Virus record (IMG/VR): IMGVR_UViG_3300028558_000016
Span: 214,014 to 278,013 of that record
Length of the DNA: 64,000 nucleotides
DNA from: a virus
Strand: one strand, 5' to 3'
The notes under the pieces are model-generated. The model did not search any database, was not told the DNA's origin, and saw only the letters and a program-made list of their open reading frames with translations. The stretch's first letter is position 1, and each line of letters opens with the position of its first letter. The position numbers and the translations under genes are program-made. Positions 7,804 to 62,198 of this stretch are shown here, piece by piece.

Positions 7804-8222
7804 AGAGATACAGCGATTTCGTTAACGTCAACGAAAAAGTCGAACAATACGATTTTGAATTCCACACAGTAGTGGTTGCAAAGAACATTGATTTCGATAA
7901 TGAGCCTGTGGACAATTCTAAGGAACAATACATTGAAAAAGGAGATTTAACCATCCATTGGATAATGGATTTCGATAATAGAAAATACGGAATCAATAGT
8001 ATGGCGCCTGTGATCAAAAAGATCTCAGGATTTTATACTTTGGTCACTCCACAAGAACAAGGCAGAGATATTGAAGATGAAGTGGAAATTCTAATGGATG
8101 AAAAATCTGATTGGAAATTCGAGAATGATTTTCAAAGCGAATTCAAATTCGGTTACTCAATTGTTCCAGGAAGCATAGAGATAGATTTCAAAGACAAGAC
8201 AATCAAAATACTTTATTATTGA
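7794..8222 (+). CDS. CTS-motif protein (MGIKRYSDFVNVNE)
   Basis: Track ORF 7788; likely start at second Met, giving MGIKRYSDF motif. Confidence 0.45.
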   Translation: MGIKRYSDFVNVNEKVEQYDFEFHTVVVAKNIDFDNEPVDNSKEQYIEKGDLTIHWIMDFDNRKYGINSMAPVIKKISGFYTLVTPQEQGRDIEDEVEILMDEKSDWKFENDFQSEFKFGYSIVPGSIEIDFKDKTIKILYY

Positions 8223-9223
8223 AGCATTTCCATTGCAAGTCTCGCACCAGGTATGTGAGATGTCATTGCCATGAATGCGTACAGTGCTAAAGCAAGAGTA
8301 AAGTATTGCAACACTGCCAATAATATTTGACGCAAAGTCATTATTGGTTTTTCCACCGGCTTTTCCGGTTTCCTTAAATTCGTTTTTGTTTCAGTTAGAT
8401 ATTTTGCTAATTCAGCAGGAATTGGAACATTTTTATCCGTATAATCTTTTTCTATCGATGCAATGTGATTCAATATTGAATAGTATTCGTTATTGAGTAT
8501 CTCATCATATTTGTTTTTTCTCTTCAACAGCCAAAATTCGAGCAACAATTCTATGGTTGATAGAATGACAACGAGAATAAAAATCCAAATGTGCGCATAC
8601 ACTGCGAGAAATATTGCACCCACAATTCCGAGGCACATGAAGATCAATCCAACCCAAGAGTGAATAGAGAATGCAATTGATTTCATTATACGACCACCAT
8701 CAAGAGGATTTATTGGAAGAAGGTTAAAAAGATTTATCATTGCCATCCAGCTTGCTCCAGCAGCATACATTGGATTTTCCGTGACATAGAATATAATCAT
8801 CATTCCAAGCGCACAGGCAAATCCAAACACAGGTCCCATTATGGCAACAAACACTTCGTCATTCCTTGTTTTAAAGTCTTCTGACGCAACAGCCGCTCCA
8901 CCCACAAATGGAATGAAATAGATTCCCTTGGTTTTTATGCCAACACGTTTCATGGCCCAAATATGACCATACTCATGGATTAAAAGTTGTACCATTAATA
9001 TAAGAGAGAACTTCCATGAATACATGTAACTGTATGCGGCAAAAGATATTCCAGCCAATGCAAGCTTGGTCATCTTTGCTGATATTGAAGTCACCTTTGT
9101 TATTACTTTAAGAGATAAGATAGCGATATTCGTCATCTTACTACCAAACGATTTTGGTTTTTCTGTTGTCATTTCTGCCATGCTACAAATATACTTAAAA
9201 CTTTTAATATCTAACGAATACAA
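8216..9223 (-). CDS. M50 family (site-2 protease-like) zinc metalloprotease, membrane
   Basis: HEYGH (HExxH) in a TM helix plus NLLPINPLDGG (LDG motif); multiple TM segments; one of only three minus-strand genes. Confidence 0.75.
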   Translation of the reverse strand: MYSLDIKSFKYICSMAEMTTEKPKSFGSKMTNIAILSLKVITKVTSISAKMTKLALAGISFAAYSYMYSWKFSLILMVQLLIHEYGHIWAMKRVGIKTKGIYFIPFVGGAAVASEDFKTRNDEVFVAIMGPVFGFACALGMMIIFYVTENPMYAAGASWMAMINLFNLLPINPLDGGRIMKSIAFSIHSWVGLIFMCLGIVGAIFLAVYAHIWIFILVVILSTIELLLEFWLLKRKNKYDEILNNEYYSILNHIASIEKDYTDKNVPIPAELAKYLTETKTNLRKPEKPVEKPIMTLRQILLAVLQYFTLALALYAFMAMTSHIPGARLAMEMLQ

Positions 9224-23073: not shown

Positions 23074-23376
23074 ATGGAAGAAAAAGAATTGATAATACTC
23101 ACACATTATGTGAATGTTGGGAGTTCATCTCCAGAAACAGCAAAGCGTATAATGGAAAGAACCGTAGAAATGGTTTTGAGCGAGGATACAGATCCATTGT
23201 ATAGATTTAAACATTTTTTCTATCCTGTGAAAGATGAAGTCAATGCAAGAACAGAATGCATCTATCCTGTAAGACAAGGTCCAATGGGAATTCCTGGAGT
23301 TCCTGGAGATTATTTTGAATCGATTTTGAAAGACCTTGATAATAAGTACGAACAGCTTTTAGAAAAAATAGGATGA
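23074..23376 (+). CDS. hypothetical protein
   Basis: 100 aa. Confidence 0.45.
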   Translation: MEEKELIILTHYVNVGSSSPETAKRIMERTVEMVLSEDTDPLYRFKHFFYPVKDEVNARTECIYPVRQGPMGIPGVPGDYFESILKDLDNKYEQLLEKIG

Positions 23377-24836
23377 TACTCGATATAGAAAAAAGACCTC
23401 ACGAACTTGCATGCAGTTACTTCAATAAAGAAGGAACAATTGAATATGTAAGAATTCCAGTTCCATTGAACGAAAGATTCAATTGGTTAACTTGTAATGA
23501 CACGGATAAGGACAAGGACGTAGAATGGAAAACGTGGGACGAAAATCCTGTAAAGAAGATAATCGTAAAAGATGCAACTAAACTTTCTAAGTATAGATGT
23601 GAAGAGGTTATTTATCAACATACACAAGCAAATCCCGACTCTCCGTTATTGGAGTTTAATGTTCCAAGAAAGTATTTCATAGATATTGAGGTTGAGGTTC
23701 TTGATGGATTTCCAGATCCTGACACAGCACAAAATAAAATAACTGCAATATCAATCGCAGGCGCTGATAGCAAAAGGATTTTTGTTCTTGGTCTTAAACC
23801 ATTAACAGAAGCGCAATGTCACAAGATCGATGCCGACATCAACGGGCACTTTGCCAAGTTCGATGATAAATGGAATTTCCAATACAAGCAGTTTGATTCT
23901 GAGCATGACATGTTGGTTGAATTCTTTCAGAAGATATTACCTAACATGCCTTGCATAAGTGGATGGAATTTTTTCGGATACGATTGGAAGTACCTTCTTA
24001 ACAGAGCTTACAAATACAAGGATGTAAAACCAGAGAGATGTTCTCCGTCGAATACTTTAATAACAAAAAGAAATTCCGGTAATTCAGGAATTCCACAACA
24101 TAAGCTTATTGTGGATTACATGGAAATTTACAAGAAGTGGGATAAGGTTATCAAGGTAAGAGAAAACGATAAGCTTGATTATGTTGCCAAGATGGCAACA
24201 GGATTGGAGAAAATTAAATATCCAGGAAGCTTCACAGAGCTTTATGAAAGAGATTTTCAAAAGTTTATCTTCTATAACGCGGTCGATTCAATTCTGGTTC
24301 ATTACATCGATAAGAAGCTAAACACAATGTTGGCTTATCTTAAATTGGCACATGTTTCAGGAATAGAAATAAAGAAAGCATTCTCTCCTATTTGGATCAT
24401 GGAAGCAATGATGAACAGAAAATTCCTTGACAGAAAACAAGTATTCGTTTATTTGGGTGGAGATGAAGAAGATCAAAAACCATTTGATGGTGCGTATGTA
24501 AAAGAACCTTTGAGAGGATTTCACAATTGGGTTACATGTTATGACTTTGCATCTTTGTATCCTAATACCATGATGCAATTCAACATCAGTCCAGAAACAT
24601 TTGTTGGAAATAACGTTGAGCCTAAAGAAGGTCAGATCAAGGCCGGTGAGCACGTCAATGAATTTGGAAAAACATCTTGGAGAGTTTTCGATAACAGCTC
24701 TGACTCCATAATGAGAGTAATTTTAACAGAGCTTTATGGAAAGAGAAAAGAAACGAAACAAAAGTACCTCTCTATTAATAAAGAGATCGACGCTCTCAGC
24801 AAGTACATTTCAAAAGAACGATTAGAGAAAGCCTAA
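23373..24836 (+). CDS. family B DNA polymerase, N-terminal segment (3'-5' exonuclease + polymerase motif A)
   Basis: Exo I YFIDIEVE, Exo II WNFFGYDWKYL, Exo III YNAVDSIL, motif A YDFASLYPNTM; ends before motif B. Confidence 0.85.
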   Translation: MILDIEKRPHELACSYFNKEGTIEYVRIPVPLNERFNWLTCNDTDKDKDVEWKTWDENPVKKIIVKDATKLSKYRCEEVIYQHTQANPDSPLLEFNVPRKYFIDIEVEVLDGFPDPDTAQNKITAISIAGADSKRIFVLGLKPLTEAQCHKIDADINGHFAKFDDKWNFQYKQFDSEHDMLVEFFQKILPNMPCISGWNFFGYDWKYLLNRAYKYKDVKPERCSPSNTLITKRNSGNSGIPQHKLIVDYMEIYKKWDKVIKVRENDKLDYVAKMATGLEKIKYPGSFTELYERDFQKFIFYNAVDSILVHYIDKKLNTMLAYLKLAHVSGIEIKKAFSPIWIMEAMMNRKFLDRKQVFVYLGGDEEDQKPFDGAYVKEPLRGFHNWVTCYDFASLYPNTMMQFNISPETFVGNNVEPKEGQIKAGEHVNEFGKTSWRVFDNSSDSIMRVILTELYGKRKETKQKYLSINKEIDALSKYISKERLEKA

Positions 24837-25223: not shown

Positions 25224-25249
25224 TTTGAATCGAATCGATTATTCCACGA

Positions 25250-25289
25250 AAACCTCCGGAAATTTATTTTTCGGAGGTTTTTTATTTTA
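25250..25289 (+). terminator. rho-independent terminator
   Basis: AACCTCCG ... CGGAGGTT then TTTTTATTTT. Confidence 0.7.
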
Positions 25290-25345
25290 CTTTTTAAATA
25301 TATAGTTCAGACCTTCCTATTATAGGTAACCAAAAATAAGGTCAA

Positions 25346-26194
25346 TTGCTTGTGAAAAATTTTTTAAACGGATTGTTAGATAAAGTTGTTACTAATTTCG
25401 GATTTGACTCAAACCATGATTTCTCCTCTTCCATGATGCATGCTAATTTGCTGTTCTTCACTATACCAGTTGCCTTCATATCTTCCTTTATAGAAAACTA
25501 TTTTGGACTGCAGGCTGTTACCCTTATAGCTTTCGTGACGCTTATTGCACTGGAATTAATAACAGGAATAAGTTCTTCAAGAGTAAGGAAAATTCCATTA
25601 CAATCAAAGAGGTTCAGCAGATTTGGTTTTAAGCTTGTTATTTGGTTCTTGATATTCTTCATCCTTCAAACCATGAAGCTTCAATACAAGGACAATGCCG
25701 TCATAGGTGGAATATACAGTTGGCTGCACAGCAGCATCTTCATATATGTCACGCTTGAGTATTTGATCTCTGTTGTTGAGAACGTATCTGTCATCACGGG
25801 AGATAACAACAACGTCATCCTGCACATGATAAAGGGAACTGTTGGAAAATACATGAAGGTTAAAGAGAATGAGGCGGAAGAGTTCTTCCAAGTAAACGAT
25901 GAACTTTTATGTGTTCTGTCTGAAGAAGGTAAATTCAGAAAGGTAAATAAGGCATGGATGGAAGCACTTGGATACGATGAGAAATACATCCTCAATAAAA
26001 GCTTTAAGGAATTCGTTCATCCAGAGGATTTAAAGAAGACCAAGGAAGAATATGAGAAATTGAAATCATCTGGAACTATTTCAGGATTGATAAACAGGTA
26101 TAAGACAAAAGACGGCAATTACATCTATTTGTCATGGCACGCTAAAGGAGGTAAGAACGGAATGTTCTACTGCACCACAAAGGTCGTAATCTAA
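25346..26194 (+). CDS. holin-like membrane domain (Holin_4_1/TcdE-type) fused to a C-terminal PAS domain
   Basis: TM helices plus ELITGISSSRVRKIPLQSKRFSRFGFKLVIWFLIFF (cf. TcdE DTLLGCLSAIKSRKF..S.GIDGGIRKV). C-terminus LCVLSEEGKFRKVNKAWMEALGYDEKYILNKSFKEFVHPEDL...KTKDGNYIYL is PAS-like. TTG start as in track. Confidence 0.5.
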   Translation: MLVKNFLNGLLDKVVTNFGFDSNHDFSSSMMHANLLFFTIPVAFISSFIENYFGLQAVTLIAFVTLIALELITGISSSRVRKIPLQSKRFSRFGFKLVIWFLIFFILQTMKLQYKDNAVIGGIYSWLHSSIFIYVTLEYLISVVENVSVITGDNNNVILHMIKGTVGKYMKVKENEAEEFFQVNDELLCVLSEEGKFRKVNKAWMEALGYDEKYILNKSFKEFVHPEDLKKTKEEYEKLKSSGTISGLINRYKTKDGNYIYLSWHAKGGKNGMFYCTTKVVI

Positions 26195-26212
26195 TTAACA
26201 AAATCATAATAA

Positions 26213-26246
26213 GAGCCCTCGAAATTTCGAGGGCTTTTTTATTTTT
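26213..26246 (+). terminator. rho-independent terminator
   Basis: Perfect palindrome AGCCCTCGAAA/TTTCGAGGGCT then TTTTTTATTTTT. Confidence 0.8.
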
Positions 26247-26265
26247 ATTATATTGCAATAAGCAA

Positions 26266-28970: not shown

Positions 28971-30806
28971 ATGAAAGACAAAATCACGTACTTTTTAAAA
29001 GAATCAACAGTCTTCACTAAATTCTTAGTGGTAGTAGGCTTAGTTGGAATCGTTTGGGGCTTTAAATATGCATGGGAAACATGGATGCCTAAACCAACAG
29101 TTAAAACGGAAGTAATCGCAGTAAACGATCTTCCACCGTTAGCGTACGATAAAAACGCAAACGCAATTTCGCGTCCTTTACCTGACACCATTAACCTTAG
29201 CGAGGTTGGTGCACCGTTCCAATTGAGAGCGGAAATCATGGGATGGAACGCGCAAGCCGGAGTAGCATACGCAAATGGTGGAGCACAAACAATGGCAAAA
29301 TCAATCATGGAAGAACAAGGTGTTCGTCTTAACTTGATCTGTCAAAACAATTGCGGTAAACAAGGTGAGGATGTATTTGCATTCGCACAAGAATATGCTA
29401 AAGGAAGTAAAACATCCGCAAAAGGATGTCACATGATTGCCTGGATGGGTGATGGAGTTCCATCTTACTTGCAGGACTTAAACGAACGCATCAAAAAACA
29501 AATTGGTGAAGAATACATCTTACAAGTGTTCGCAACGTTCGGTGCTTCTTTCGGTGAAGATAAAGCAATCTTCGAAAACGGTTCATTCAAACAAGATCCT
29601 CAAAAATTACGCGGTTCATTATGGTGCGGTGTTATTCGTGATGGAGATTGGAACATCTTAATGAAATATGCAGACATGAACCAAATTCCAGTAAACACAG
29701 ATCTTACAACTTACGATCCTACCGGTATTAATTGGATGCAAGCTCCTGATTTCGATTACACGAAAGCTGCTCAACAATATGTTGCTCGCACAAAAGAAAA
29801 ACGTGAAATCGTTATAAATGGAAAACGTACAGGCCGTGACACTACAGTTGCAGTTAATGGTTGTGTTACATGGTTCCCTGGTGATCAAGTTGCTTTCCAA
29901 GGTCGTGGCGGTGTAACAGTTGCTTCAACTAAAGATTTTGGTGCTCAAATGGCAAACACTTGGTTAGCTCCAAAGAAATGGTTACAAGACAATCGCGCAT
30001 ACGTTGAGAAATTTATTTATGCCGGTTTATTAGGTGGAGATCAAGTTAAATCTCATAGTTCAGCTCTTGCATTTGGTTGCCGTGTTGAAACTGCTATCTA
30101 TGCTGATGCTACAATGAAAGCTTCTGATTGGGAAAATGCATTCAAAGGAATGCAATATACCGATGCAAATGGAAACATGTGCGAAATCGGTGGTTCACGT
30201 GTATTCAACTTATCGGATGCTGCTGAGTATTATGGATTAACAAATGGTGGAACTGACAAATATGCTGCGGTGTATTCTACATTCGGTGATCTTTGTGTTA
30301 AGGCATATCCTAAAGACGTTCCAAAATATCCTGCTTATGAAGAAGTAGTTGATTTAAGCTACATCACAGAAGTTTACACCAAGAACAAAGGGTCAAACAC
30401 TTCAGTTGCTTCAATGCCAACATTCAAAGAAGGTCAAACAATGACATCATCGTTTTCTTCTAAGAAAGTTTCCATTGAATTTGACTTAGGTAGCGCAACA
30501 ATCAAGCCTTCATCTTATGCTACATTACAAGGCATTGCAAACGATTTCATCGTTGCTGAAGGTTTACTTGCAACTATCGAAGGTCATACTGACAACACTG
30601 GAAATGCTGATGCTAACATGAACCTATCTCAACAACGTGCTGATGCCGTTAAGAATTGGTTGATGAATAAAAATCCTAAGTTATTCAAAAACAAAATCAC
30701 TTCGGTTGGTTACGGACAAGATCGTCCAGTTGATCCAAACGCAGACAACAACAATGCTTCTAATAGAGCACACAATCGTCGCGTTGAAATTAAACTTGGC
30801 CACTAA
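28971..30806 (+). CDS. large N-terminally anchored protein with C-terminal OmpA-like peptidoglycan-binding domain (possible substrate-binding component)
   Basis: N-terminal TM/signal anchor. C-terminus IEGHTDNTGNADANMNLSQQRADAVKNWL...GYGQDRPV...NRRVEI is a classic OmpA_C domain. Followed by ABC permease and ATPase. Confidence 0.65.
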   Translation: MKDKITYFLKESTVFTKFLVVVGLVGIVWGFKYAWETWMPKPTVKTEVIAVNDLPPLAYDKNANAISRPLPDTINLSEVGAPFQLRAEIMGWNAQAGVAYANGGAQTMAKSIMEEQGVRLNLICQNNCGKQGEDVFAFAQEYAKGSKTSAKGCHMIAWMGDGVPSYLQDLNERIKKQIGEEYILQVFATFGASFGEDKAIFENGSFKQDPQKLRGSLWCGVIRDGDWNILMKYADMNQIPVNTDLTTYDPTGINWMQAPDFDYTKAAQQYVARTKEKREIVINGKRTGRDTTVAVNGCVTWFPGDQVAFQGRGGVTVASTKDFGAQMANTWLAPKKWLQDNRAYVEKFIYAGLLGGDQVKSHSSALAFGCRVETAIYADATMKASDWENAFKGMQYTDANGNMCEIGGSRVFNLSDAAEYYGLTNGGTDKYAAVYSTFGDLCVKAYPKDVPKYPAYEEVVDLSYITEVYTKNKGSNTSVASMPTFKEGQTMTSSFSSKKVSIEFDLGSATIKPSSYATLQGIANDFIVAEGLLATIEGHTDNTGNADANMNLSQQRADAVKNWLMNKNPKLFKNKITSVGYGQDRPVDPNADNNNASNRAHNRRVEIKLGH

Positions 30807-30813
30807 GAAATAT

Positions 30814-30843
30814 GGAAAAGGGCTTCGGCCCTTTTCTTTTTTC
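30814..30843 (+). terminator. rho-independent terminator
   Basis: GAAAAGGGC-TTCG-GCCCTTTTC then TTTTTT. Confidence 0.75.
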
Positions 30844-30851
30844 CTCTAATC

Positions 30852-31670
30852 TTGTGTAGTATGAAACAGTTAAAGATGCTTAGGCAGACAGCCATTGATG
30901 TGACCACTCCAAATAAAACAATTGGAGGTTCGTCAAAAAATTCCATATTCGCATTTTGGATTTGTTCCACCATGTTGTTATGGTTCTTGACAGGATCAAA
31001 ACTTCTTCCATCGCCAATGGATATTCTAACGGCATTGAAGATGATGATCGTGGATAAGAATTTCATAGGTGAGCTTTTGACAAGCACCACCTTTTGTATG
31101 AAGGCAATGGGATATGCAATTGTCGTATCATTCATTGTAGCATACCTCTCAGTGCTTCCAATATTTAGACCTATATGTGCATTCGTTGCTAAAGCAAGAT
31201 TCTTAAGCACAGCAGGTTTGACGTTCTTTGTTGGAGAAATAACCCCAGACAGCGGAGTTAAAAAACTCGTAATGCTTTCGTTTGTCATCACTGTATTTCT
31301 TGTTACTTCCATGCTCGCAGTAGTTATGGATGTTAAGAAGGATGATCTTGATTATGCAAGAACATTGAGAATGAATGAATGGAAAGCCGTATGGGCAGTA
31401 ATAATTAGAGGAAAGATCGATATGATGTTTGAAGTGATAAGACAAAATTTTGCCATTGCCTGGATGATGCTTGCCATGTCGGAAAGCTTATGCAGGGCAG
31501 AAGGTGGGATAGGAATATTATTGACAGACACAGACAAACATTTCCACCTCGATGAGGTATTTGGAATTCAACTTGTGGTGTTATGTGTTGGTATGTTCTT
31601 TGATTGGTCACTTAGAAAAATCAGAGCTTGGTTCTTTCCATATTCAGTGCTTAAACTTGAAAGGAAGTAA
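30852..31670 (+). CDS. ABC transporter permease (NitT/TauT SsuC/TauC-like)
   Basis: LLPSPMDIL N-terminal signature, 6 predicted TM helices, conserved loop ...AIAWMMLAMSESLCRAEGGIGILL. Confidence 0.65.
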   Translation: MCSMKQLKMLRQTAIDVTTPNKTIGGSSKNSIFAFWICSTMLLWFLTGSKLLPSPMDILTALKMMIVDKNFIGELLTSTTFCMKAMGYAIVVSFIVAYLSVLPIFRPICAFVAKARFLSTAGLTFFVGEITPDSGVKKLVMLSFVITVFLVTSMLAVVMDVKKDDLDYARTLRMNEWKAVWAVIIRGKIDMMFEVIRQNFAIAWMMLAMSESLCRAEGGIGILLTDTDKHFHLDEVFGIQLVVLCVGMFFDWSLRKIRAWFFPYSVLKLERK

Positions 31671-31672
31671 TT

Positions 31673-32500
31673 ATGTTAGGACAGTCATATACATTAGGTG
31701 AAGACATTCTCAATGTAGAGAATGTTTCCCTTGAGCTTGGTGGAAAACTCATATTGAGAGACATCAATATAAACATTAAGGACGTAATTCGTCCGAACAC
31801 AGGACCAACAGGTCAGATCATTGGATTTCTTGGTCCATCTGGACGTGGAAAAACTCAACTATTTAAAATACTTGCAGGATTAAATAAACCAACAACAGGA
31901 CAAGTTCTTCTTGGAACTGAAAGGAAAATAGTTCAAACTGGAGATGTTGGAGTTGTTGCACAAAATTATCCGTTGTTTGAGTACTTAACGGTTTGGGGGA
32001 ATCTCGAACTTGTTGCGAAAGAAAAAACAAAAGCAGAAAAGAAAGAAAAAATTGAGTTCTATCTTGATCGTTTCAAGATGATGGAACATAAGGACAAATA
32101 TCCTGCTCTATTATCTGGAGGACAAAGACAACGCGTAGCAATCATTCAACAAATGCTTTGTTCTGAATATTTCTTATTGATGGATGAACCGTTTTCCGGT
32201 CTTGATCCATTGATGACGACGCAAGTTTGTCAAATGATAGAAACCGTTGCAAACATAAATGAGAAGAATACAATCATCATTGTGTCTCACGATATTCCAT
32301 CTACAGTATCAATAGCTCAAACCATTTGGCTTCTTGGATATGATTATGATCCTCAAACAAAACAGCCAATACCTGGAGCAAGGATAAAATACGTTGAAAA
32401 CCTTATGGATCGTGGATTGACATGGAAAGAAGATCTTGTGAACTCACCTGAATTCTTTTCATTTGTGAAAGATGTACGTAACACATTTAATGAACTGTAA
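31673..32500 (+). CDS. ABC transporter ATP-binding protein
   Basis: Walker A GPSGRGKT, signature LSGGQRQRVAI, Walker B LLMDEPFSGLD, H-loop IIIVSHD. Confidence 0.85.
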   Translation: MLGQSYTLGEDILNVENVSLELGGKLILRDININIKDVIRPNTGPTGQIIGFLGPSGRGKTQLFKILAGLNKPTTGQVLLGTERKIVQTGDVGVVAQNYPLFEYLTVWGNLELVAKEKTKAEKKEKIEFYLDRFKMMEHKDKYPALLSGGQRQRVAIIQQMLCSEYFLLMDEPFSGLDPLMTTQVCQMIETVANINEKNTIIIVSHDIPSTVSIAQTIWLLGYDYDPQTKQPIPGARIKYVENLMDRGLTWKEDLVNSPEFFSFVKDVRNTFNEL

Positions 32501-36372: not shown

Positions 36373-36792
36373 ATGTCAAAGAAATCCAAGGTATCAAGGT
36401 CGGTTGCTGCCAAAAGGAAGTTGAAAGATCATCTTAAGACTCACCTTGGCAAGAATTCTTCTTGTTACTTTACTCCAACGGAGTCAGTTGCTTGGTATTG
36501 GTGGAGAGTCATCAATAAGGCCGCGTTCAAAAACAAACTTCCATATCCAAAAGAAATTGTCATTAGGAAATTAAGAGGAGCATGGGGAATTTGTGACGGC
36601 AAAGCAAGGATGGACATGTGTGTCATAACAATATCGTCAGACATTACAAACAGAAAATTATTCATTGCAACAGTTGCGCATGAAATGGTTCATCAATGGC
36701 AATTCCATTACGCAGCAGGAAACCTACACCACGGATCCAATTTCAGAGATTGGGACGTATACTTTAAAAGAAACTTCGGCATCACTTTATGA
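36373..36792 (+). CDS. SprT-like zinc metalloprotease domain protein
   Basis: ATVAHEMVHQWQFHYAAGNLHHGSNF matches SprT HExxH..H..HG..F pattern. Confidence 0.6.
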   Translation: MSKKSKVSRSVAAKRKLKDHLKTHLGKNSSCYFTPTESVAWYWWRVINKAAFKNKLPYPKEIVIRKLRGAWGICDGKARMDMCVITISSDITNRKLFIATVAHEMVHQWQFHYAAGNLHHGSNFRDWDVYFKRNFGITL

Positions 36793-36983
36793 GGATAGAC
36801 ATAGAAAGAGTTAAGGCTCTGAAAGCAGAGATAGACTTGATAAACGGACATCCACTACATGCCATAGAACTATTTGAAAACGGAGAGAAGGTAGAAACTG
36901 ATCCTCAGTTAATAGATGCCTTAGAGCACACCTCCTTAAACAATTACAACATAATCTTATCCAGGTTCTTTATTAAGCCATAA
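36789..36983 (+). CDS. hypothetical protein
   Basis: 64 aa. Confidence 0.35.
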   Translation: MRIDIERVKALKAEIDLINGHPLHAIELFENGEKVETDPQLIDALEHTSLNNYNIILSRFFIKP

Positions 36984-37016
36984 GGAACAATTTCTGATGC
37001 TTATTATAGAATAGGC

Positions 37017-38687
37017 ATGGCAAATATTGATAAGATCACATCGAGCAGCACGGCAGAATACTTCTCAAAGAACCTTCAACAGGTGGGATTCTCATCTCAC
37101 ACTAAAGCAGTTTTGACTGTTGTTAAGGAATCTGTAGATAATTCTCTTGATGCCTGCGAAGAAGCTGGAATACTTCCAAACATCAACGTCATCATCGAAA
37201 AGATGGGACCTGGAACATTAACTGGTTCGGACCAAATTCGTGTTCGAGTGGAAGATAATGGTCCTGGAATAAATCAAGAAGACATTCAAAAAGTTTTCGG
37301 AGAATATCTTTCGTCATCCAAATTCGGAAGAGGTAGATGTTCGAGAGGGCAACAAGGTATAGGAATCTCTGCAGCAACCACATGGGCCCAATTGACTAAT
37401 GCGATGGGCGTAAGAGTAATCACAAAAAGGAAAGAGAATAATAAAGCCATAAAATGCCTCGTTGAAGTTGACATCAAAAATAACAAGGGTGTTATCAAAG
37501 ATAAGGAGTCAATAACATGGAATAAACCTCATGGCACTTGTGTTGAGTTTATATTTGACGGAAGAATACAAGCCAACGGAGAACTTGGTTTAATAAACTA
37601 CCTAACAGGAACCGCACTTGTGAATCCACACATGTCCATGGATTATAAGATCTTTGGATTTGAACAGAAGGTTCTAACCCGAGTAAGCAATGACATGCCG
37701 GAAATTCCAGAGGCAGTCGAACCACATCCACACACTTTAAAACTTGGTGAATTCATAGCGCACTCACACATGTATGGGAAAACTAAAGTAGACCATTGGT
37801 TGAAAAAAGGTTTCTCCAGAATAAACGAAGGCACTCTTAAAGACATTGCTAAGCATGGAGGAAAGGGAATGATGACAAAACAAGTCGATAGCTTAAATGA
37901 TGTCGAACTTAAAACTCTATTTAAAGCAATACAAGATACAAAGCTAATGGCTCCGATGACAAAGAGCGTAATGTCGATTGGAGAGGAAGCATTTTCAAAA
38001 AGCATGAAGAGACTTGGAACAGTAAATTTCTTTTCCATAGTTTCAAGAACTCCTTGCGTATGTGATTTTAAACCAGTTCTTGTGGAAGTTGCAATTGCTC
38101 GTGTGTCAGATGGTGGACCTGAAGATTCATCCGCTCAAGTTCTAAGATTTGCAAACAGAGTTCCTCTTCAGTTTGATAAGTCGTCTTGCGCAATAGTCAA
38201 ATCAATTGAGAGCGTAAATTGGAAAGCATACGGATTAAACCAACCAAAGAATTCTCTTCCATTAGGACCATACATCATAGCAGTTTCAGTTGTTTCTCCT
38301 TTCATCAAGTTTAAAAATGCTTCTAAAGAAACAATCGATGCATCAGATGAATTAGTGGAAGAAATAAGAAAAGCATTAATACAAGCAGGGCAGAGATTAT
38401 CAAAACACATCAAACATGAGGATAAGGCAGCAGAGCTTGAAAAGAAGTTAAGACACATCGAACAGTTCTGTCCAATATTATTAAATGGATTGTGTCATAT
38501 AACAAATGCTTCCAAGACAAGAAGAAATCAAGCAGAAAAAGGTCTTGCCAATCTTCTTGGAAGAGATGCAAAATCGACAAAGCTCGAACTTGATCAAGCA
38601 ACAAAAAGCTTAAACAAGGCTAAAGAAAAAGGAACCATCCAAAATAAAGAAAAAGGATTGGACGAAATAATGGATGATTTAATTTAA
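37017..38687 (+). CDS. type IIB DNA topoisomerase (Topo VI-like) subunit B, GHKL ATPase
   Basis: Bergerat-fold motifs ESVDNSLDA (N box), DNGPGI (G1), GQQGIGISAA (G2). Confidence 0.8.
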   Translation: MANIDKITSSSTAEYFSKNLQQVGFSSHTKAVLTVVKESVDNSLDACEEAGILPNINVIIEKMGPGTLTGSDQIRVRVEDNGPGINQEDIQKVFGEYLSSSKFGRGRCSRGQQGIGISAATTWAQLTNAMGVRVITKRKENNKAIKCLVEVDIKNNKGVIKDKESITWNKPHGTCVEFIFDGRIQANGELGLINYLTGTALVNPHMSMDYKIFGFEQKVLTRVSNDMPEIPEAVEPHPHTLKLGEFIAHSHMYGKTKVDHWLKKGFSRINEGTLKDIAKHGGKGMMTKQVDSLNDVELKTLFKAIQDTKLMAPMTKSVMSIGEEAFSKSMKRLGTVNFFSIVSRTPCVCDFKPVLVEVAIARVSDGGPEDSSAQVLRFANRVPLQFDKSSCAIVKSIESVNWKAYGLNQPKNSLPLGPYIIAVSVVSPFIKFKNASKETIDASDELVEEIRKALIQAGQRLSKHIKHEDKAAELEKKLRHIEQFCPILLNGLCHITNASKTRRNQAEKGLANLLGRDAKSTKLELDQATKSLNKAKEKGTIQNKEKGLDEIMDDLI

Positions 38688-38691
38688 AACA

Positions 38692-39843
38692 ATGGCAAAA
38701 AATAACGACATATCAAAACTAAGCAAGGACATTTGCGAAAGACTTTTGTCAGACTTGGAAAATTCTAAGAGACCAACATTGAAAGCAACAAAGTGTTCTT
38801 TGGACAATGCTGTGTATGATTTCAAAAAGGGATATTTGACGGCTGGACCAAAGAAAGTAATAACGGAATTGAATGTTAGCTCGGTCAAGAAGATGGCAAG
38901 AACTATATTTGTTCTTAAGATCATTTTAAGAAACATAGAGGTTGGAGCGGTCAACACTAAACGTGAGATTTATTACATCTGCAAAGGTGAAATAAAACAT
39001 GATCCTTCGTTGAAACCAATAAACTTTGAAGACCAAAGCGAGTCAGACGAAATAATAGATTTCATTTGTGAGTTATTGGAATGTTACAGAGAAGAATTGA
39101 ATTGCTTCGCCAACGATAGAGGTGGACAAACATATTCGCAAAACCTAATTGTGACCGAAACATTAAATGACGGAACAATTGCAACCATAGATCTTTCCAA
39201 ATTAGGAACAACTCCTTTTCAACCTAAAAACAGACCTCAAAGCTTAAAGCTATCTTCTAACGCAGGAAAGAAGAAACCTGATTTCTGTTTGATAGTTGAG
39301 TCAGAAGGTACTGCCAACACGCTCGTGTCAAACGGTTTCACCAAAAGGAATAATTGCATTTTGTTAGGTGCTCAAGGAGTTCCATCAAATGCAGTAAGAG
39401 GTTGGTGCAAGCTTATACAGGATGATCTTAAAATTCCATTATATTTCTTTGGTGACCTTGACGCATACACCATGCAAAACATTTTCAGAACGTTGAAAGC
39501 CGGATCAGCATCAAGCATTTTAAGGAATGCAGATTTCTCTGCACCCGACGTTAAGTTCCTTGGTGTTCTTCCTAAGGACATAAAGAAATACGATCTCAAT
39601 GATTACCCGGTAAAGACAAGCGATGCTCAGGAAGTAAGAGCTTTGAAGAAAGCTGCTGATGCTTTGAAAAATGATCCTTTCTTTCAAGACAAGAACAACA
39701 AGGGGTTAACTGAGGTGTTGAAATGGTTATTAGTCAATAAGAGACGTTGCGAGCAACAATCTTTCTTCAGTGTTAATCCCAAGGATCCTATAATGCCAGA
39801 GAAGATAATTCTTGACAAGATAAAGAATGGGGATTTCTTATAA
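38692..39843 (+). CDS. type IIB DNA topoisomerase subunit A (Spo11/Topo VI-A-like)
   Basis: Catalytic-Tyr context REIYYICKGE; Toprim acidic residues LIVESEGTANTL and YFFGDLDAYT. Confidence 0.8.
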   Translation: MAKNNDISKLSKDICERLLSDLENSKRPTLKATKCSLDNAVYDFKKGYLTAGPKKVITELNVSSVKKMARTIFVLKIILRNIEVGAVNTKREIYYICKGEIKHDPSLKPINFEDQSESDEIIDFICELLECYREELNCFANDRGGQTYSQNLIVTETLNDGTIATIDLSKLGTTPFQPKNRPQSLKLSSNAGKKKPDFCLIVESEGTANTLVSNGFTKRNNCILLGAQGVPSNAVRGWCKLIQDDLKIPLYFFGDLDAYTMQNIFRTLKAGSASSILRNADFSAPDVKFLGVLPKDIKKYDLNDYPVKTSDAQEVRALKKAADALKNDPFFQDKNNKGLTEVLKWLLVNKRRCEQQSFFSVNPKDPIMPEKIILDKIKNGDFL

Positions 39844-41716: not shown

Positions 41717-42931
41717 ATGAGCTTTCAATATACACAAATAGATCCAGAAACAGCTACCCCGGAAGAAATTAAGGCCGAGATAGACAGGATGAAACAACTT
41801 TCCAATGAGTGGAAAAACGAAGAACAAGCAGTAAAAATCTTAATTAATTCCATGTATGGTGCTCTTGGAAATAAGTGGCTCGTATGTTTCAACCCAGACG
41901 TTGCTGAGACCGTAACACATCAAGGACAAAACTTCTTCATGCTTGCGGAAAAATCTATAAATCATTATTTCCAAAACATGTGGGTTAAGGATACAGAGCT
42001 TCATGCAAAGCTTGGAATTGTTGGAGAAGTAAAACCCGTAAAAAAACCTGTTGTAATTGCTGGAGACACTGATAGCTGTTATGTTTGTTGGGACGAAGTA
42101 GTGGAGTCTTTCGATTGGGAAGCATCCAATGTTGAAGGTGGACCTCATGGACTCATATTGAAAATAAATGAATTCCGATTTGCTAACTTCTTAAACACCG
42201 TGTTTGACAGATATGCAGCAAGAGAGAAAACAAAGAACTATCAAGATTTTGAACTCGAGAATATTTCTGAATCTGCTATATGGCTTGCAAAGAAGAAGTA
42301 CTTATTGAATGTTGTATGGCAAGATGGAATTGACATCAATACTCTTACTCAGATCACATTCAAGGGAGTTGAATTAGCACAATCATCAACTCCTGAATTT
42401 GCGAGAGAGAAATTAAAAGATCTCGTTAAGTTCGTATTCACAAATAAGAAAGGGTTGAAGCTTAACGACATCATCGGTCTATTAAAAAAATATAAAGAAG
42501 AATTCAAGATAGCTGATCCTCAGAAAGTTTCCATGGGTAGAGGAATAACTGATTATAGCAAATACATTTTGAATGACTCAACTAAATTTGAGGTGGCAAG
42601 CAAATGTCCAATTCACGTTAGGGCTGCAGGATATTACAATTATTTGCTTAACCAAAATCCAAAATTAAAAAGCAAGTACGAAGTAATAAAGGCTGGTGAC
42701 AAGATTAAATTCTTCCACGCTAAGACAAAGGGATGGTCCGAGAATTTAGCGAGCAACGAAGAGGATGTATTCGCATTTCTTCCAGGATCTTTTCCTGTGG
42801 AGTTTGCTCCTCCAATTGATTATGATAATCAATTCACTAAAACTATCATTGACCCAATAAATAGGATCACCTCAGCAATGGGACTTCCAGATATTGGCCC
42901 GAATTTATTTATTGCGCATGCGCTTTTCTAA
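41717..42931 (+). CDS. family B DNA polymerase, C-terminal segment (motifs B and C, thumb)
   Basis: Motif B KILINSMYGALG, motif C IAGDTDSCYV; begins ~45 aa before motif B. Confidence 0.85.
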   Translation: MSFQYTQIDPETATPEEIKAEIDRMKQLSNEWKNEEQAVKILINSMYGALGNKWLVCFNPDVAETVTHQGQNFFMLAEKSINHYFQNMWVKDTELHAKLGIVGEVKPVKKPVVIAGDTDSCYVCWDEVVESFDWEASNVEGGPHGLILKINEFRFANFLNTVFDRYAAREKTKNYQDFELENISESAIWLAKKKYLLNVVWQDGIDINTLTQITFKGVELAQSSTPEFAREKLKDLVKFVFTNKKGLKLNDIIGLLKKYKEEFKIADPQKVSMGRGITDYSKYILNDSTKFEVASKCPIHVRAAGYYNYLLNQNPKLKSKYEVIKAGDKIKFFHAKTKGWSENLASNEEDVFAFLPGSFPVEFAPPIDYDNQFTKTIIDPINRITSAMGLPDIGPNLFIAHALF

Positions 42932-58729: not shown

Positions 58730-58904
58730 AGATTTAAAATATAAAATGTTCTTGATTGACATCAAGAATCTGTGTGATCAACACGACGACTTAGCGCCGA
58801 TCTCTAATCTAATAAAAAATGGAATGACACGTTTGGAAAAAAAGCCTGGTCCGATCATAGAAAAAGAATTAAAGAAACCTATACCTCTTTATTTATTAAA
58901 TTGA
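58722..58904 (+). CDS. hypothetical small protein
   Basis: 60 aa; converges on minus-strand gene. Confidence 0.3.
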   Translation: MSEDLKYKMFLIDIKNLCDQHDDLAPISNLIKNGMTRLEKKPGPIIEKELKKPIPLYLLN

Positions 58905-59265
58905 TGTGCATCTTCAGTATGTCACACAATTCCTCGCCGGCCTCTTTGAGATCGGAATCCTCGTAATACCAATTGATGGAAGCATTGTGAAACGCTTCCA
59001 ATTTCCTGAATATCTTTATTAATTGCAACAGGCTTGATGGAGAGAAATATCCAAGGTCCACGTTGATCAGGAAATAAGAATTCTTGTCTTGAACTTTTAG
59101 GAAAGCATCAAGCCAATCTATTATTGGAAGATAAAATGATTTTGGATCTGTTGGAACTGAAACCCCTTTGATGTTAAAGATCCCATCCTTTGGAATGTAC
59201 TCGAACGATGGAGACTTTTCTGTGGCCTTCATCCTTAAGGGGATATTGTACAAACCATCACTCAC
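58879..59265 (-). CDS. hypothetical protein (minus-strand module, gene 2)
   Basis: 128 aa. Confidence 0.45.
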   Translation of the reverse strand: MSDGLYNIPLRMKATEKSPSFEYIPKDGIFNIKGVSVPTDPKSFYLPIIDWLDAFLKVQDKNSYFLINVDLGYFSPSSLLQLIKIFRKLEAFHNASINWYYEDSDLKEAGEELCDILKMHINLINKEV

Positions 59266-60077: not shown

Positions 60078-62198
60078 ATGAACGGTGCTCAATTAAAAAT
60101 CAAACAAATCAAGGGTCTCAACGCAGAGCTCGCTGATAAGCTTTCAAAGAGTTTAGGCGGAACTGTTACCGGACCATTGACGATAGGTGGACCATTAGTG
60201 GTCACTGGGCCAACCATCATAAACACTGATCTTTCTTTACAAGGAGCTATAGTGGATTTTTATGGAAGTCCTGGACCTCCAGGATGGGTGCTAACCTCCA
60301 CAGGAACAGCAACACAATGGGTGGATCCTTTAGGACCATTAGGTGTTTCAGGATTTAGTGGAACATCAGGTATCTCAGGTTACAGCGGAACATCAGGTGT
60401 TTCTGGTTACACAGGTGTAAGCGGTTATTCAGGTGTAAGCGGATTCTCTGGATATTCCGGAGACAGCGGTACAAGTGGAACAACAGGTATTTCAGGAACA
60501 AGCGGTGTTTCAGGTTTTTCTGGATACTCAGGCGTATCAGGATACTCTGGAACTTCTGGTATTTCAGGAACGAGCGGTATAAGTGGAACAACAGGTGTAA
60601 GCGGATTTTCAGGATACACTGGAGCTTCAGGAACTTCTGGATTTACTGGTGTGTCAGGTTTTTCTGGATACTCAGGCGTGAGTGGTTTTTCTGGATACAC
60701 AGGAACTTCTGGTATTTCAGGAACAAGCGGTATTAGTGGAACTTCTGGAATTTCTGGATACAGTGGTGTTTCAGGTTTTTCTGGTGTTAGTGGATGGTCA
60801 GGATCAAGCGGTATTTCTGGATTCAGTGGTTATTCAGGTGTAAGTGGATTCACAGGTGTGAGCGGTTACACTGGTGTTTCTGGATTCACTGGAACTTCTG
60901 GTATTTCTGGATCATCTGGATATTTTGGACAAGATGGTATGTCAGGTTTTTCTGGATTCTCTGGATTCGGAATTTCTGGTTACTCAGGATATTCTGGAAA
61001 CAATGGAGTTGCCGGTGGAGCTTTATACTATTTAAGAGATGAAGACTCAGATGTCCCAGGCTTTAAAGAATTAGATATAAATCCAGATGGAATAGATCCT
61101 GAAGGATCTTATACAGCTGCTTGCGATAATACAACCGGCGAAGTATTAATAAAACAATTCTTAACTTTTCCATCAAACCCAGATCAGCTTTATATTTCAG
61201 GTGGTTCATGGATATTCGATACTTATGCCTCAGTAGACAACTCAGGCGGAGTTTCAAATATCGTAATAAGATTTTACAAGAGAGATCAATTTGGTATTGA
61301 GACTGAATTGTTCAACGTAACGACTGCAGAGATAAATGTCGTATCTCCTACATTATTTTCAAAAGAAATTCTCCAAGGAGAATTCAATATAGCATTAACT
61401 GATAGATTATTAGTAAAGTATTTTGCAAAAACTACTTCAACGACAACAATTAACGTCAGCATTTATTTAGAAGGAAATACGCATGCAACACATATTCACT
61501 CTCCTGTATCTTTCATAGGAGCTTCAGGTTTCTCTGGATGGTCAGGTTTTAGTGGAACTTCAGGAACTTCTGGATTCACAGGAGTTTCAGGATTTACGGG
61601 TGTGAGCGGATATAGCGGTGTTTCAGGTTTTTCTGGTGTAAGCGGATTCACAGGTGTCAGTGGTGTTTCAGGTTTCTCTGGATATTCTGGAACAAGTGGA
61701 ACATCTGGTTATAGTGGAACATCTGGTTTTTCAGGCGTGTCAGGTTACTCTGGAACTTCTGGATTCTCTGGATATTCTGGAACATCAGGCTTCACAGGCG
61801 TCAGCGGTTTCTCAGGTATTTCTGGAGACTCAGGTGTTAGCGGATTCACAGGAGCAAGTGGAACATCCGGTTTTTCAGGCGTGTCAGGTTACTCTGGAAC
61901 TTCTGGATTCTCTGGATATTCTGGAACAAGTGGAACATCCGGTTATAGTGGATTTAGCGGAGTTTCTGGATATTCTGGTGTAAGTGGATTCTCAGGTGTT
62001 TCAGGATTTAGCGGATACTCAGGAACATCCGGATTCTCTGGTTACAGCGGAACAAGTGGATTTACCGGTGTCAGTGGATTCAGCGGCGTTAGCGGATTTT
62101 CAGGAACCTCTGGATTATCTGGAACTTCTGGATTTTCAGGAACCTCTGGATTTGATGCAGGTATTCTTGCATTGATCATCAATAGTCTTGGCTTGTAA
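60078..62198 (+). CDS. collagen-like tail fiber protein with two (Gly-X-Ser/Thr)n blocks flanking a globular domain
   Basis: 706 aa. Gly at every third residue over ~aa 86-310 and ~477-695 with X mostly F/Y/V/I/T/W and Y mostly S/T. N-terminal non-repeat head; central ~170-aa non-repeat domain. Confidence 0.75.
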   Translation: MNGAQLKIKQIKGLNAELADKLSKSLGGTVTGPLTIGGPLVVTGPTIINTDLSLQGAIVDFYGSPGPPGWVLTSTGTATQWVDPLGPLGVSGFSGTSGISGYSGTSGVSGYTGVSGYSGVSGFSGYSGDSGTSGTTGISGTSGVSGFSGYSGVSGYSGTSGISGTSGISGTTGVSGFSGYTGASGTSGFTGVSGFSGYSGVSGFSGYTGTSGISGTSGISGTSGISGYSGVSGFSGVSGWSGSSGISGFSGYSGVSGFTGVSGYTGVSGFTGTSGISGSSGYFGQDGMSGFSGFSGFGISGYSGYSGNNGVAGGALYYLRDEDSDVPGFKELDINPDGIDPEGSYTAACDNTTGEVLIKQFLTFPSNPDQLYISGGSWIFDTYASVDNSGGVSNIVIRFYKRDQFGIETELFNVTTAEINVVSPTLFSKEILQGEFNIALTDRLLVKYFAKTTSTTTINVSIYLEGNTHATHIHSPVSFIGASGFSGWSGFSGTSGTSGFTGVSGFTGVSGYSGVSGFSGVSGFTGVSGVSGFSGYSGTSGTSGYSGTSGFSGVSGYSGTSGFSGYSGTSGFTGVSGFSGISGDSGVSGFTGASGTSGFSGVSGYSGTSGFSGYSGTSGTSGYSGFSGVSGYSGVSGFSGVSGFSGYSGTSGFSGYSGTSGFTGVSGFSGVSGFSGTSGLSGTSGFSGTSGFDAGILALIINSLGL
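60333..61008 (+). repeat. 9-nt-periodic coding repeat block 1 (GGn-nnn-TCn/AGy triplets)
   Basis: Encodes (G-X-S/T)n; generates spurious ORFs in other frames. Confidence 0.8.
61509..62165 (+). repeat. 9-nt-periodic coding repeat block 2
   Basis: Second (G-X-S/T)n block of the fiber gene. Confidence 0.8.

Follow-up and report, generated by a model that had tools for sequence, protein, structure and literature searches.

A phage protein that joins a Phage_holin_4_1 membrane domain to a C-terminal PAS domain

The stretch of viral DNA analyzed here (64,000 nucleotides, positions 214,014 to 278,013 of IMG/VR record IMGVR_UViG_3300028558_000016; hereafter the window) encodes a 280-residue protein in which a membrane domain of the Phage_holin_4_1 family is followed, within a single chain, by a PAS domain. 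The gene, referred to below as holin-PAS, forms a transcription unit of its own, both halves of its product are under strong purifying selection, and the same fusion recurs in a clade of related proteins. An architecture of this kind had been proposed from the DNA alone (the original prediction), together with the idea that it couples lysis timing to an intracellular signal. That the protein forms holes in the membrane, and that its PAS domain has any gating or sensing role, we infer. The explanation we favor, with a probability of roughly 0.45, is a holin whose oligomerization is gated by the tethered cytoplasmic PAS domain.

Two domains in one chain

The original prediction had made its case depend on a holin-family match for the N-terminal half, and such a match was found. 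Residues 46–153 score 29.2 bits against Phage_holin_4_1 (PF05105), above the gathering score of 22.2, and align with profile positions 2–104 of 116, so that by the Pfam profile the protein belongs to the family. The same profile matched all of the extended or related proteins tested (22 of 22). Every residue that is invariant in the family (E68, G72, S85, R90-F91-G92, K94, W98, E136-Y137, S140 and E143-N144) is retained in the membrane domain of the window protein. When this half was compared using Foldseek with the predicted viral structures of BFVD, the matches were phage proteins annotated as holins, among them those of CP-51 and CampHawk, which infect Bacillus, and one from a crAss-like phage. 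The same comparison with PDB did not match any solved structure.

The layout of the membrane half was derived from hydropathy analysis and from an AlphaFold2 model with a mean predicted local distance difference test (pLDDT) score of 84, and the two agree. Two short helices (residues 2–14 and 21–28) precede four predicted membrane helices (Table 1), and the motif NFGF(D)xxxDFxxS within this N-terminal segment is kept in both fusion and PAS-less relatives. The Pfam holin profile spans helices 2–4. Helix 1 is thus an extra element on the N-terminal side compared with the three-helix TcdE type, which had been the type originally proposed; the family assignment stands, but the helix number does not, and the residue signature quoted in its support is only approximately present. 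Set beside a small holin of about three helices, the protein has the three homologous helices and a loop of charge +7, and in addition an extra helix, a length of 280 residues and a topology that is predicted. The loop in question (residues 74–95, SSSRVRKIPLQSKRFSRFGFK) lies between helices 2 and 3 and contains seven Lys or Arg residues and no Asp or Glu. By the positive-inside rule it should be cytoplasmic, and an arrangement of four helices would then place the PAS domain on that side of the membrane too, along with the N terminus. The cytoplasmic PAS tail of the original prediction agrees with this charge-based topology.

Between the two halves, the modeled amphipathic helix next to the membrane runs into a linker (residues 164–182) that AlphaFold predicts to be disordered, with pLDDT below 50. 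The whole connecting segment (residues 151–182) is also the least conserved part of the protein in the most distant close relative, with 46% identity.

The C-terminal half is a PAS domain both by profile and by predicted fold, just as had been suggested. Scores exceed the curated cut-offs for PAS_3 (PF08447; 44.0 bits vs 25.6), PAS (PF00989; 29.4 bits vs 22.6) and PAS_9 (28.7 bits vs 27) in Pfam, where the PAS_3/PAS region covers residues 183–269, and for TIGR00229 sensory_box in NCBIfam (46.8 bits vs 22.9). The AlphaFold model displays the five strands of the PAS fold (residues 184–189, 194–198, 242–251, 257–266 and 272–279), and the block-mean pLDDT is 79 for residues 181–190 and 88–95 from residue 191 onward. 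Foldseek searches against PDB returned PAS domains exclusively, with template modeling (TM) scores of 0.85–0.91 to solved PAS domains. In the top fold match, 8px4 (E 2e-10, TM 0.88–0.91, 28–29% identity), the PAS domain comes from a diguanylate cyclase of Leptospira; HIF-2a and ARNT PAS-B came next, and phmmer against PDB sequences likewise detected 8px4 (E 1.9e-10). The domain contains an HPED motif, a generic S-box feature. As for its origin, the isolated PAS domain, used as a sequence query, retrieved nothing but a fragment belonging to this family, and tblastn of the domain against GenBank phages gave nothing at E up to 1. The closest PAS sequence outside the fusions belongs to a multi-PAS histidine kinase (P0016, 31% identity).

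Conservation, spread and transcription of the fusion gene

We found the same architecture in eleven proteins sharing 63–100% identity (ENA, Logan and JGI assemblies), and two additional fusion proteins are encoded in JGI metagenome contigs. Identity to the window protein differs little between the halves, at 67–92% in the membrane core and 59–84% in the PAS domain. Measured against a relative that is 87% identical (L074), for which dS exceeds 1, the ratio of nonsynonymous to synonymous substitution rates (dN/dS) comes to 0.04 in the membrane half and 0.08 in the PAS domain, values that reflect strong purifying selection on both. These conservation data exclude almost beyond doubt that the fusion is an artefact of mis-assembly, a frameshift or read-through of two genes: an uninterrupted open reading frame (ORF) with 63–100% identity recurs in about 13 contigs, which stem from various samples and assemblers (ENA, Logan, JGI), selection acts on both halves, the junction contains no internal start or terminator, and no evidence in support of an artefact was found.

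To survey the family, a profile of the holin domain only was run against 1.84 billion cluster representatives (50%-identity clusters). Family members recovered at E up to 1e-3 numbered 382, and the majority are 160–190 residues long. Among the best 150 clusters, about 14 are represented by proteins of 244–338 residues, and twelve to fourteen clusters carry a C-terminal extension of about 100 residues. PF05105 is matched by every extended protein tested, and PAS models directly by five of them. With a PAS profile built from the family itself, the extension is detected in P0053, P0022, P0038, P0017 and P0021 and marginally in P0023, P0029 and P0041, and several others, including P0042, are missed. 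Among the extensions that escape Pfam, the divergent one of P0042 was modeled: AlphaFold gives it the order beta-beta-alpha(n)-beta-beta-beta, and its fold matches in PDB are exclusively PAS domains, with E about 1e-3 and a probability of at least 0.98 among the top matches.

In a neighbor-joining tree of the holin domain, the proteins with an extension of about 100 residues occupy one region, with a few short proteins interspersed. Though rough, the tree is consistent with one ancient fusion whose descendants then diverged. Further long proteins of the family (P0064, P0043, P0050 and P0110) branch elsewhere and are not fused to PAS. The fusion is rare: it occurs in none of 64 IMG/VR loci, in 2 of 63 JGI metagenome loci and in no GenBank phage, including the huge phages with the closest family-B DNA polymerase (polB). 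The family as a whole is essentially confined to phages, since only one match came up when 185,579 species of bacteria and archaea were searched, each through one representative genome, and a prophage or bacterial origin was rejected. That match (L076, JBIKJV010000434.1) is a 32.9 kb contig in a metagenome-assembled genome of Phycisphaerales, and it is probably a mis-binned phage contig because its size equals that of an IMG/VR viral contig (L053).

The ORF at 25346..26194 on the + strand was confirmed in the sequence of the window, and both domain matches in its product exceed curated cut-offs. Its start, by contrast with the TTG at 25346 given originally, is almost certainly the GTG at 25352 (M-K-N-F...), because gene callers use this codon (P0001, 280 residues) and the relatives begin at the homologous one, which is TTG in L070, GTG in L074 and ATG in L075. 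The product from the GTG is identical to P0001, which is carried by a 482,059-bp contig and two further contigs. A GTG or TTG start, present in three of the four relatives compared, would be consistent with a dangerous membrane protein being translated at a low level. A dual-start antiholin motif was considered and rejected, the internal Met28-Met29 pair not being conserved in relatives.

The original prediction also placed the gene in a stand-alone transcription unit between two terminators, and this held up well: on either side there is a hairpin followed by a T-run (Table 1), and the unit is conserved in four relatives. The upstream terminator closes an operon running from the N-terminal part of polB to a DUF4494-like gene; its position is kept in L070, L074 and L075, where the stems differ by compensating changes. 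The downstream terminator, kept in the same three relatives, closes the single-gene unit. There are only five strong + strand terminators in 15–35 kb of the window and two of them flank holin-PAS, which is therefore the sole single-gene unit there. Together with the GTG/TTG starts, this arrangement would be in keeping with low, separately controlled expression of a potentially lethal protein.

About 15 nt past the upstream T-run lies the element ATATATAG, which is invariant in all four aligned relatives despite diverged surroundings. This element occurs only three times in the window, as does AATATATAG (at 25298, 36327 and 60044), in every case on the + strand and 27–54 nt upstream of a gene start, the other two copies preceding the SprT/Topo VI genes and the gene for a collagen-repeat protein. 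This hints that ATATATAG may be a promoter element, although the count alone is not significant. Repeats of a longer upstream motif, ATATATAGNNNAGACC, are not beyond chance in the window.

Table 1. Features of the holin-PAS gene and its product, in coordinates of the window
Feature	Residues	Nucleotides	Strand	Remarks
Upstream intrinsic terminator		25248..25292	+	Hairpin 25248–25282, 15-pair stem GAAAACCTCCGG...CGGAGGTTTTT, then T-run
Candidate promoter element ATATATAG		25298..25305	+	47–54 nt 5' of the start codon
holin-PAS coding sequence		25352..26194	+	280 residues, GTG start, TAA stop
N-terminal segment, predicted cytoplasmic	1–28	25352..25435	+	NFGF(D)xxxDFxxS motif, two short helices
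Predicted membrane helices (four)	29–150	25436..25801	+	Helices 31–51, 54–78, 85–111, 116–149; AlphaFold pLDDT 78–94
Juxtamembrane amphipathic helix (155–168) and flexible linker	151–182	25802..25897	+	AlphaFold
PAS domain, predicted cytoplasmic	183–280	25898..26191	+	Five beta strands, intervening helices; Pfam, NCBIfam, AlphaFold
Downstream intrinsic terminator		26211..26248	+	Hairpin 26211–26238 AAGAGCCCTCGAAATTTCGAGGGCTTTT, 12 pairs (6 G-C), then T-run

Lysis context and competing explanations

The fusion is linked to lysis by its family membership and by three PAS-less relatives, 28–46% identical, whose genes adjoin those of amidase endolysins. The L004 cassette follows baseplate and tail genes, and in it an Amidase_2 gene overlaps the start of the holin gene. 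In L047, a Laminin_G_3 tail-fiber-like gene is followed by the holin gene and then by an amidase gene matching phrog_822. In the cultured phage laban6-1, the holin gene overlaps the N-acetylmuramoyl-L-alanine amidase gene that comes next.

According to the explanation we favor, the membrane part would accumulate in the host inner membrane and form lethal holes that start lysis, as in the PAS-less relatives. A linker of about 20 residues would tether a complete cytoplasmic PAS domain to the last helix, with both ends of the protein in the cytoplasm. The PAS domain might then control when the membrane helices oligomerize, either by PAS–PAS dimerization or by changing conformation in response to a ligand or to redox state, and lysis timing would thereby come to depend on an intracellular condition. 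A stronger version, in which the protein is the first holin with a built-in cytoplasmic sensor and its PAS domain reads a host metabolite, the redox or energy state or a phage-made ligand and gates oligomerization directly, appears unlikely. If it were true, the lysis clock in this clade of huge phages would be a one-protein switch from signal to lysis, not a concentration timer.

A number of observations weigh against a PAS-gated holin. The PF05105 match is modest (29 bits), and the score against NCBIfam holin_1 (NF035928) is 24.9 bits vs a cut-off of 150, which by sequence makes the protein a relative of that subfamily and not a member. At 280 residues, it is bigger than classical holins. 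In the PAS sequence, inspection by eye revealed no cofactor signature, neither the LOV-type NCRFL Cys motif nor the F-alpha histidine. Moreover, the gene sits among replication and repair genes (split polB, dUTPase, HhH-GPD, Topo VI, RecA), not among structural or lysis genes. A partner endolysin near the gene, for which the original prediction had suggested looking, was not detected in the window: no endolysin family is represented among the ORFs of these 64 kb of a genome of about 482 kb, the check covering ORFs of at least 100 residues outside 15.4–36.2 kb and the called genes inside that interval. Neither a second holin-family member nor an Amidase_2-like ORF was found in the window or in L070–L075, and no endolysin family was detected beside the fusion at five other loci, which represent two synteny types. 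The linkage to a lysis cassette that characterizes Phage_holin_4_1 was observed only for the PAS-less genes of L004, L047 and laban6-1, not for the fusion. Even for PAS-less relatives, a recognizable endolysin is adjacent in 2 of 46 distinct contexts (L004 and IMG/VR loci), plus laban6-1, and the support that context lends to a lysis role of the family is thin. In large phages, T4 among them, lysis genes are commonly dispersed, and missing adjacency to an endolysin is therefore weak evidence; it weakens the case for a holin but does not refute it.

A separate observation concerns the upstream neighbor of many PAS-less holin genes. At 26 loci (L007 9219–9995, L010 9184–9984 and 24 other IMG/VR loci), a conserved ORF of about 260 residues, helical in character, overlaps the holin start. 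It has no Pfam, PHROG or PDB match and is neutral with respect to a lysis role; its product could be an uncharacterized lysis partner.

The anatomy of the protein is compatible with a holin, with a membrane protein that has no part in lysis and with an antiholin. We consider it somewhat unlikely that the protein serves a non-lytic membrane role in infection, be it export or leakage, control of membrane potential, superinfection exclusion, or membrane-anchored PAS signaling or scaffolding. The neighboring genes, which are concerned with replication, repair and membrane transport (OmpA-domain protein, ABC transporter, UPF0114), would suit such a role, as would the ClpB-like AAA+ and KTSC genes that adjoin distant fusion relatives and the metabolic genes beside many PAS-less relatives (MetK, dUTPase-like and glutamine-synthetase-like, read from sequence without a Pfam check). 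However, the three relatives whose contexts can be interpreted sit in lysis cassettes, the scattering of lysis genes in large phages deprives missing adjacency of much of its weight, and no defense-system model in PADLOC matched the holin-PAS protein or four of its neighbors. A precedent does exist within PF05105, whose members TcdE and TcsE release toxin without lysis (PMC8878733). Should the fusion prove non-lytic, the Phage_holin_4_1 fold would have been recruited for another membrane function in large phages.

Less likely again is an antiholin or lysis-inhibition factor, that is, a holin paralog that would co-assemble with a true holin encoded elsewhere, its PAS domain blocking holes until a signal arrives. 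Among known antiholins it is common to find a holin variant that has gained an extra element, lambda S107 being one case, and in T4 a globular domain serves to regulate the holin. A gene that is transcribed apart from any lysis gene and has no endolysin nearby would be in line with this, and weak GTG/TTG starts would suit a protein whose ratio to its partner matters. Yet a second family member was found neither in the 64 kb window nor at any fusion-bearing locus, all family-invariant residues are kept, and nothing marks the membrane domain as that of a disabled holin.

Genome setting and comparison with known systems

The genome that encodes holin-PAS is about 0.48 Mb, as judged from the 482,059-bp contig with the identical protein (ENA ERZ27245401, k141_1209612), on which the gene occupies about 206,018–206,860. 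The window has a G+C content of 37%, carries 100 of its 106 ORFs on one strand and contains no tRNA genes. Recognizable genes include those for dUTPase, ClpP, HhH-GPD, Topo VI subunits A and B, a SprT-like protein, RecA and the family-B polymerase. Among these, polB is split into two genes about 17 kb apart (23373–24836 and 41717–42931), with holin-PAS in between; the first gene encodes the exonuclease and the N-terminal part of the polymerase, and residues 18–124 of the second product match PF00136 positions 134–235. The closest polB sequences come from uncultured huge phages, LR756500 (462 kb, 38% identity), LR756501 and LR756503 (735 kb), followed by Prevotella Lak phages at about 33% identity. 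The membrane domain has its nearest homolog among cultured phages in Flavobacterium phage vB_FspS_laban6-1, where the protein is annotated as a holin. The host is likely to belong to Bacteroidota.

In four close relatives, gene order is shared: the N-terminal part of polB, the DUF4494-like gene, the fusion and, further 3', the genes for an OmpA-domain protein and an ABC transporter. Only in the window and in L074 does the fusion have an HhH-GPD gene on its 3' side. Around two distant fusion-like relatives (L071 7657–11117 and L072 4044–7499) the setting differs: a ClpB-like AAA+ gene, transcribed divergently, lies upstream and a KTSC gene immediately downstream, and lysis genes are absent here as well. 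In the window, the OmpA-domain block (28971–32500) begins with a 611-residue protein in which a large middle region separates an N-terminal membrane anchor from a C-terminal OmpA peptidoglycan-binding domain; 3' of it are an ABC permease and an ABC ATPase, and the block is kept in L070 and L075. The neighborhood also holds a UPF0114 gene.

Several other genes of the window deserve mention. A SprT-like gene is followed by the genes for topoisomerase VI subunit B (37017–38687) and subunit A (38692–39843) within 36373–39843; a type IIB topoisomerase is unusual in a phage. The few minus-strand genes include those for a membrane protein of the Peptidase_M50 (site-2 protease) family (8216–9223) and a SiaC-family regulatory phosphoprotein (58879–59265), additional signaling or membrane-regulation modules of the phage. 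A 706-residue protein with extensive collagen triple-helix repeats (60078–62198; Pfam Collagen, E 1e-62) is probably a fiber or structural protein. Four window proteins were looked up in sequence records: for three there was no exact product, and the fourth matched only a 5.7 kb contig without Pfam matches. The roughly 7 kb that follow the window showed only large ORFs without annotation.

In a full-text search of the literature, we found no paper describing a holin-family domain combined with PAS, which bears out the remark accompanying the original prediction that no example was known. Automated pipelines label relatives "PAS domain S-box-containing protein" and precomputed Pfam annotation lists both domains, and the fusion sits unremarked in databases. 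Holin triggering is classically a protein-intrinsic timer, and holins are known to be regulated by separate antiholin proteins or through a periplasmic receptor domain (T4 T with RI). A cytoplasmic PAS domain linked covalently to a holin-family protein would amount to a regulatory arrangement of a new kind, and the finding enlarges the set of sensory and regulatory modules seen in huge phages. If the proposed gating is true, the protein would represent a compact ligand- or redox-responsive lysis switch of use in synthetic biology.

Both parts of the protein have known folds. With Phage_holin_4_1 proteins of the TcdE type, the homologous membrane domain shares the motifs E-L-x-T-G, S-R-F-G-x-K and E-Y-L-x-S-x-x-E-N and the basic loop predicted to be cytoplasmic. 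The differences are that the window protein has four predicted helices instead of three, the extra one being N-terminal, that a folded PAS domain of about 100 residues replaces a short charged C-terminal tail, that its length is 280 compared with about 140–185 residues, and that no endolysin gene adjoins it.

In functional terms, the closest analogy may be holin T of phage T4 with its antiholins RI and RIII. There, a globular domain of the holin receives a regulatory input and sets lysis timing, as the PAS domain may do here, and the holin of a large phage is encoded apart from the endolysin. However, T4 T spans the membrane with a single helix and carries its globular domain in the periplasm, where this domain, which is not of the PAS type, binds a separate antiholin; here a PAS domain, predicted to be cytoplasmic, is part of the same chain. 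Homology between the two is not expected. A cytoplasmic PAS domain tethered to membrane helices is also found in E. coli Aer, an energy sensor with a PAS domain that binds flavin adenine dinucleotide, and in PAS histidine kinases. Unlike these, the fusion has no HAMP, kinase, GGDEF or other output domain, and no flavin, heme or LOV signature was recognized in it; the holin-family membrane domain would therefore be the only possible output. Finally, as in lambda S105/S107 and the S21 pinholin, timing could act through the cytoplasmic end and the dimer state of the protein, but in place of a conserved dual-start motif the regulatory element here would be a whole folded domain.

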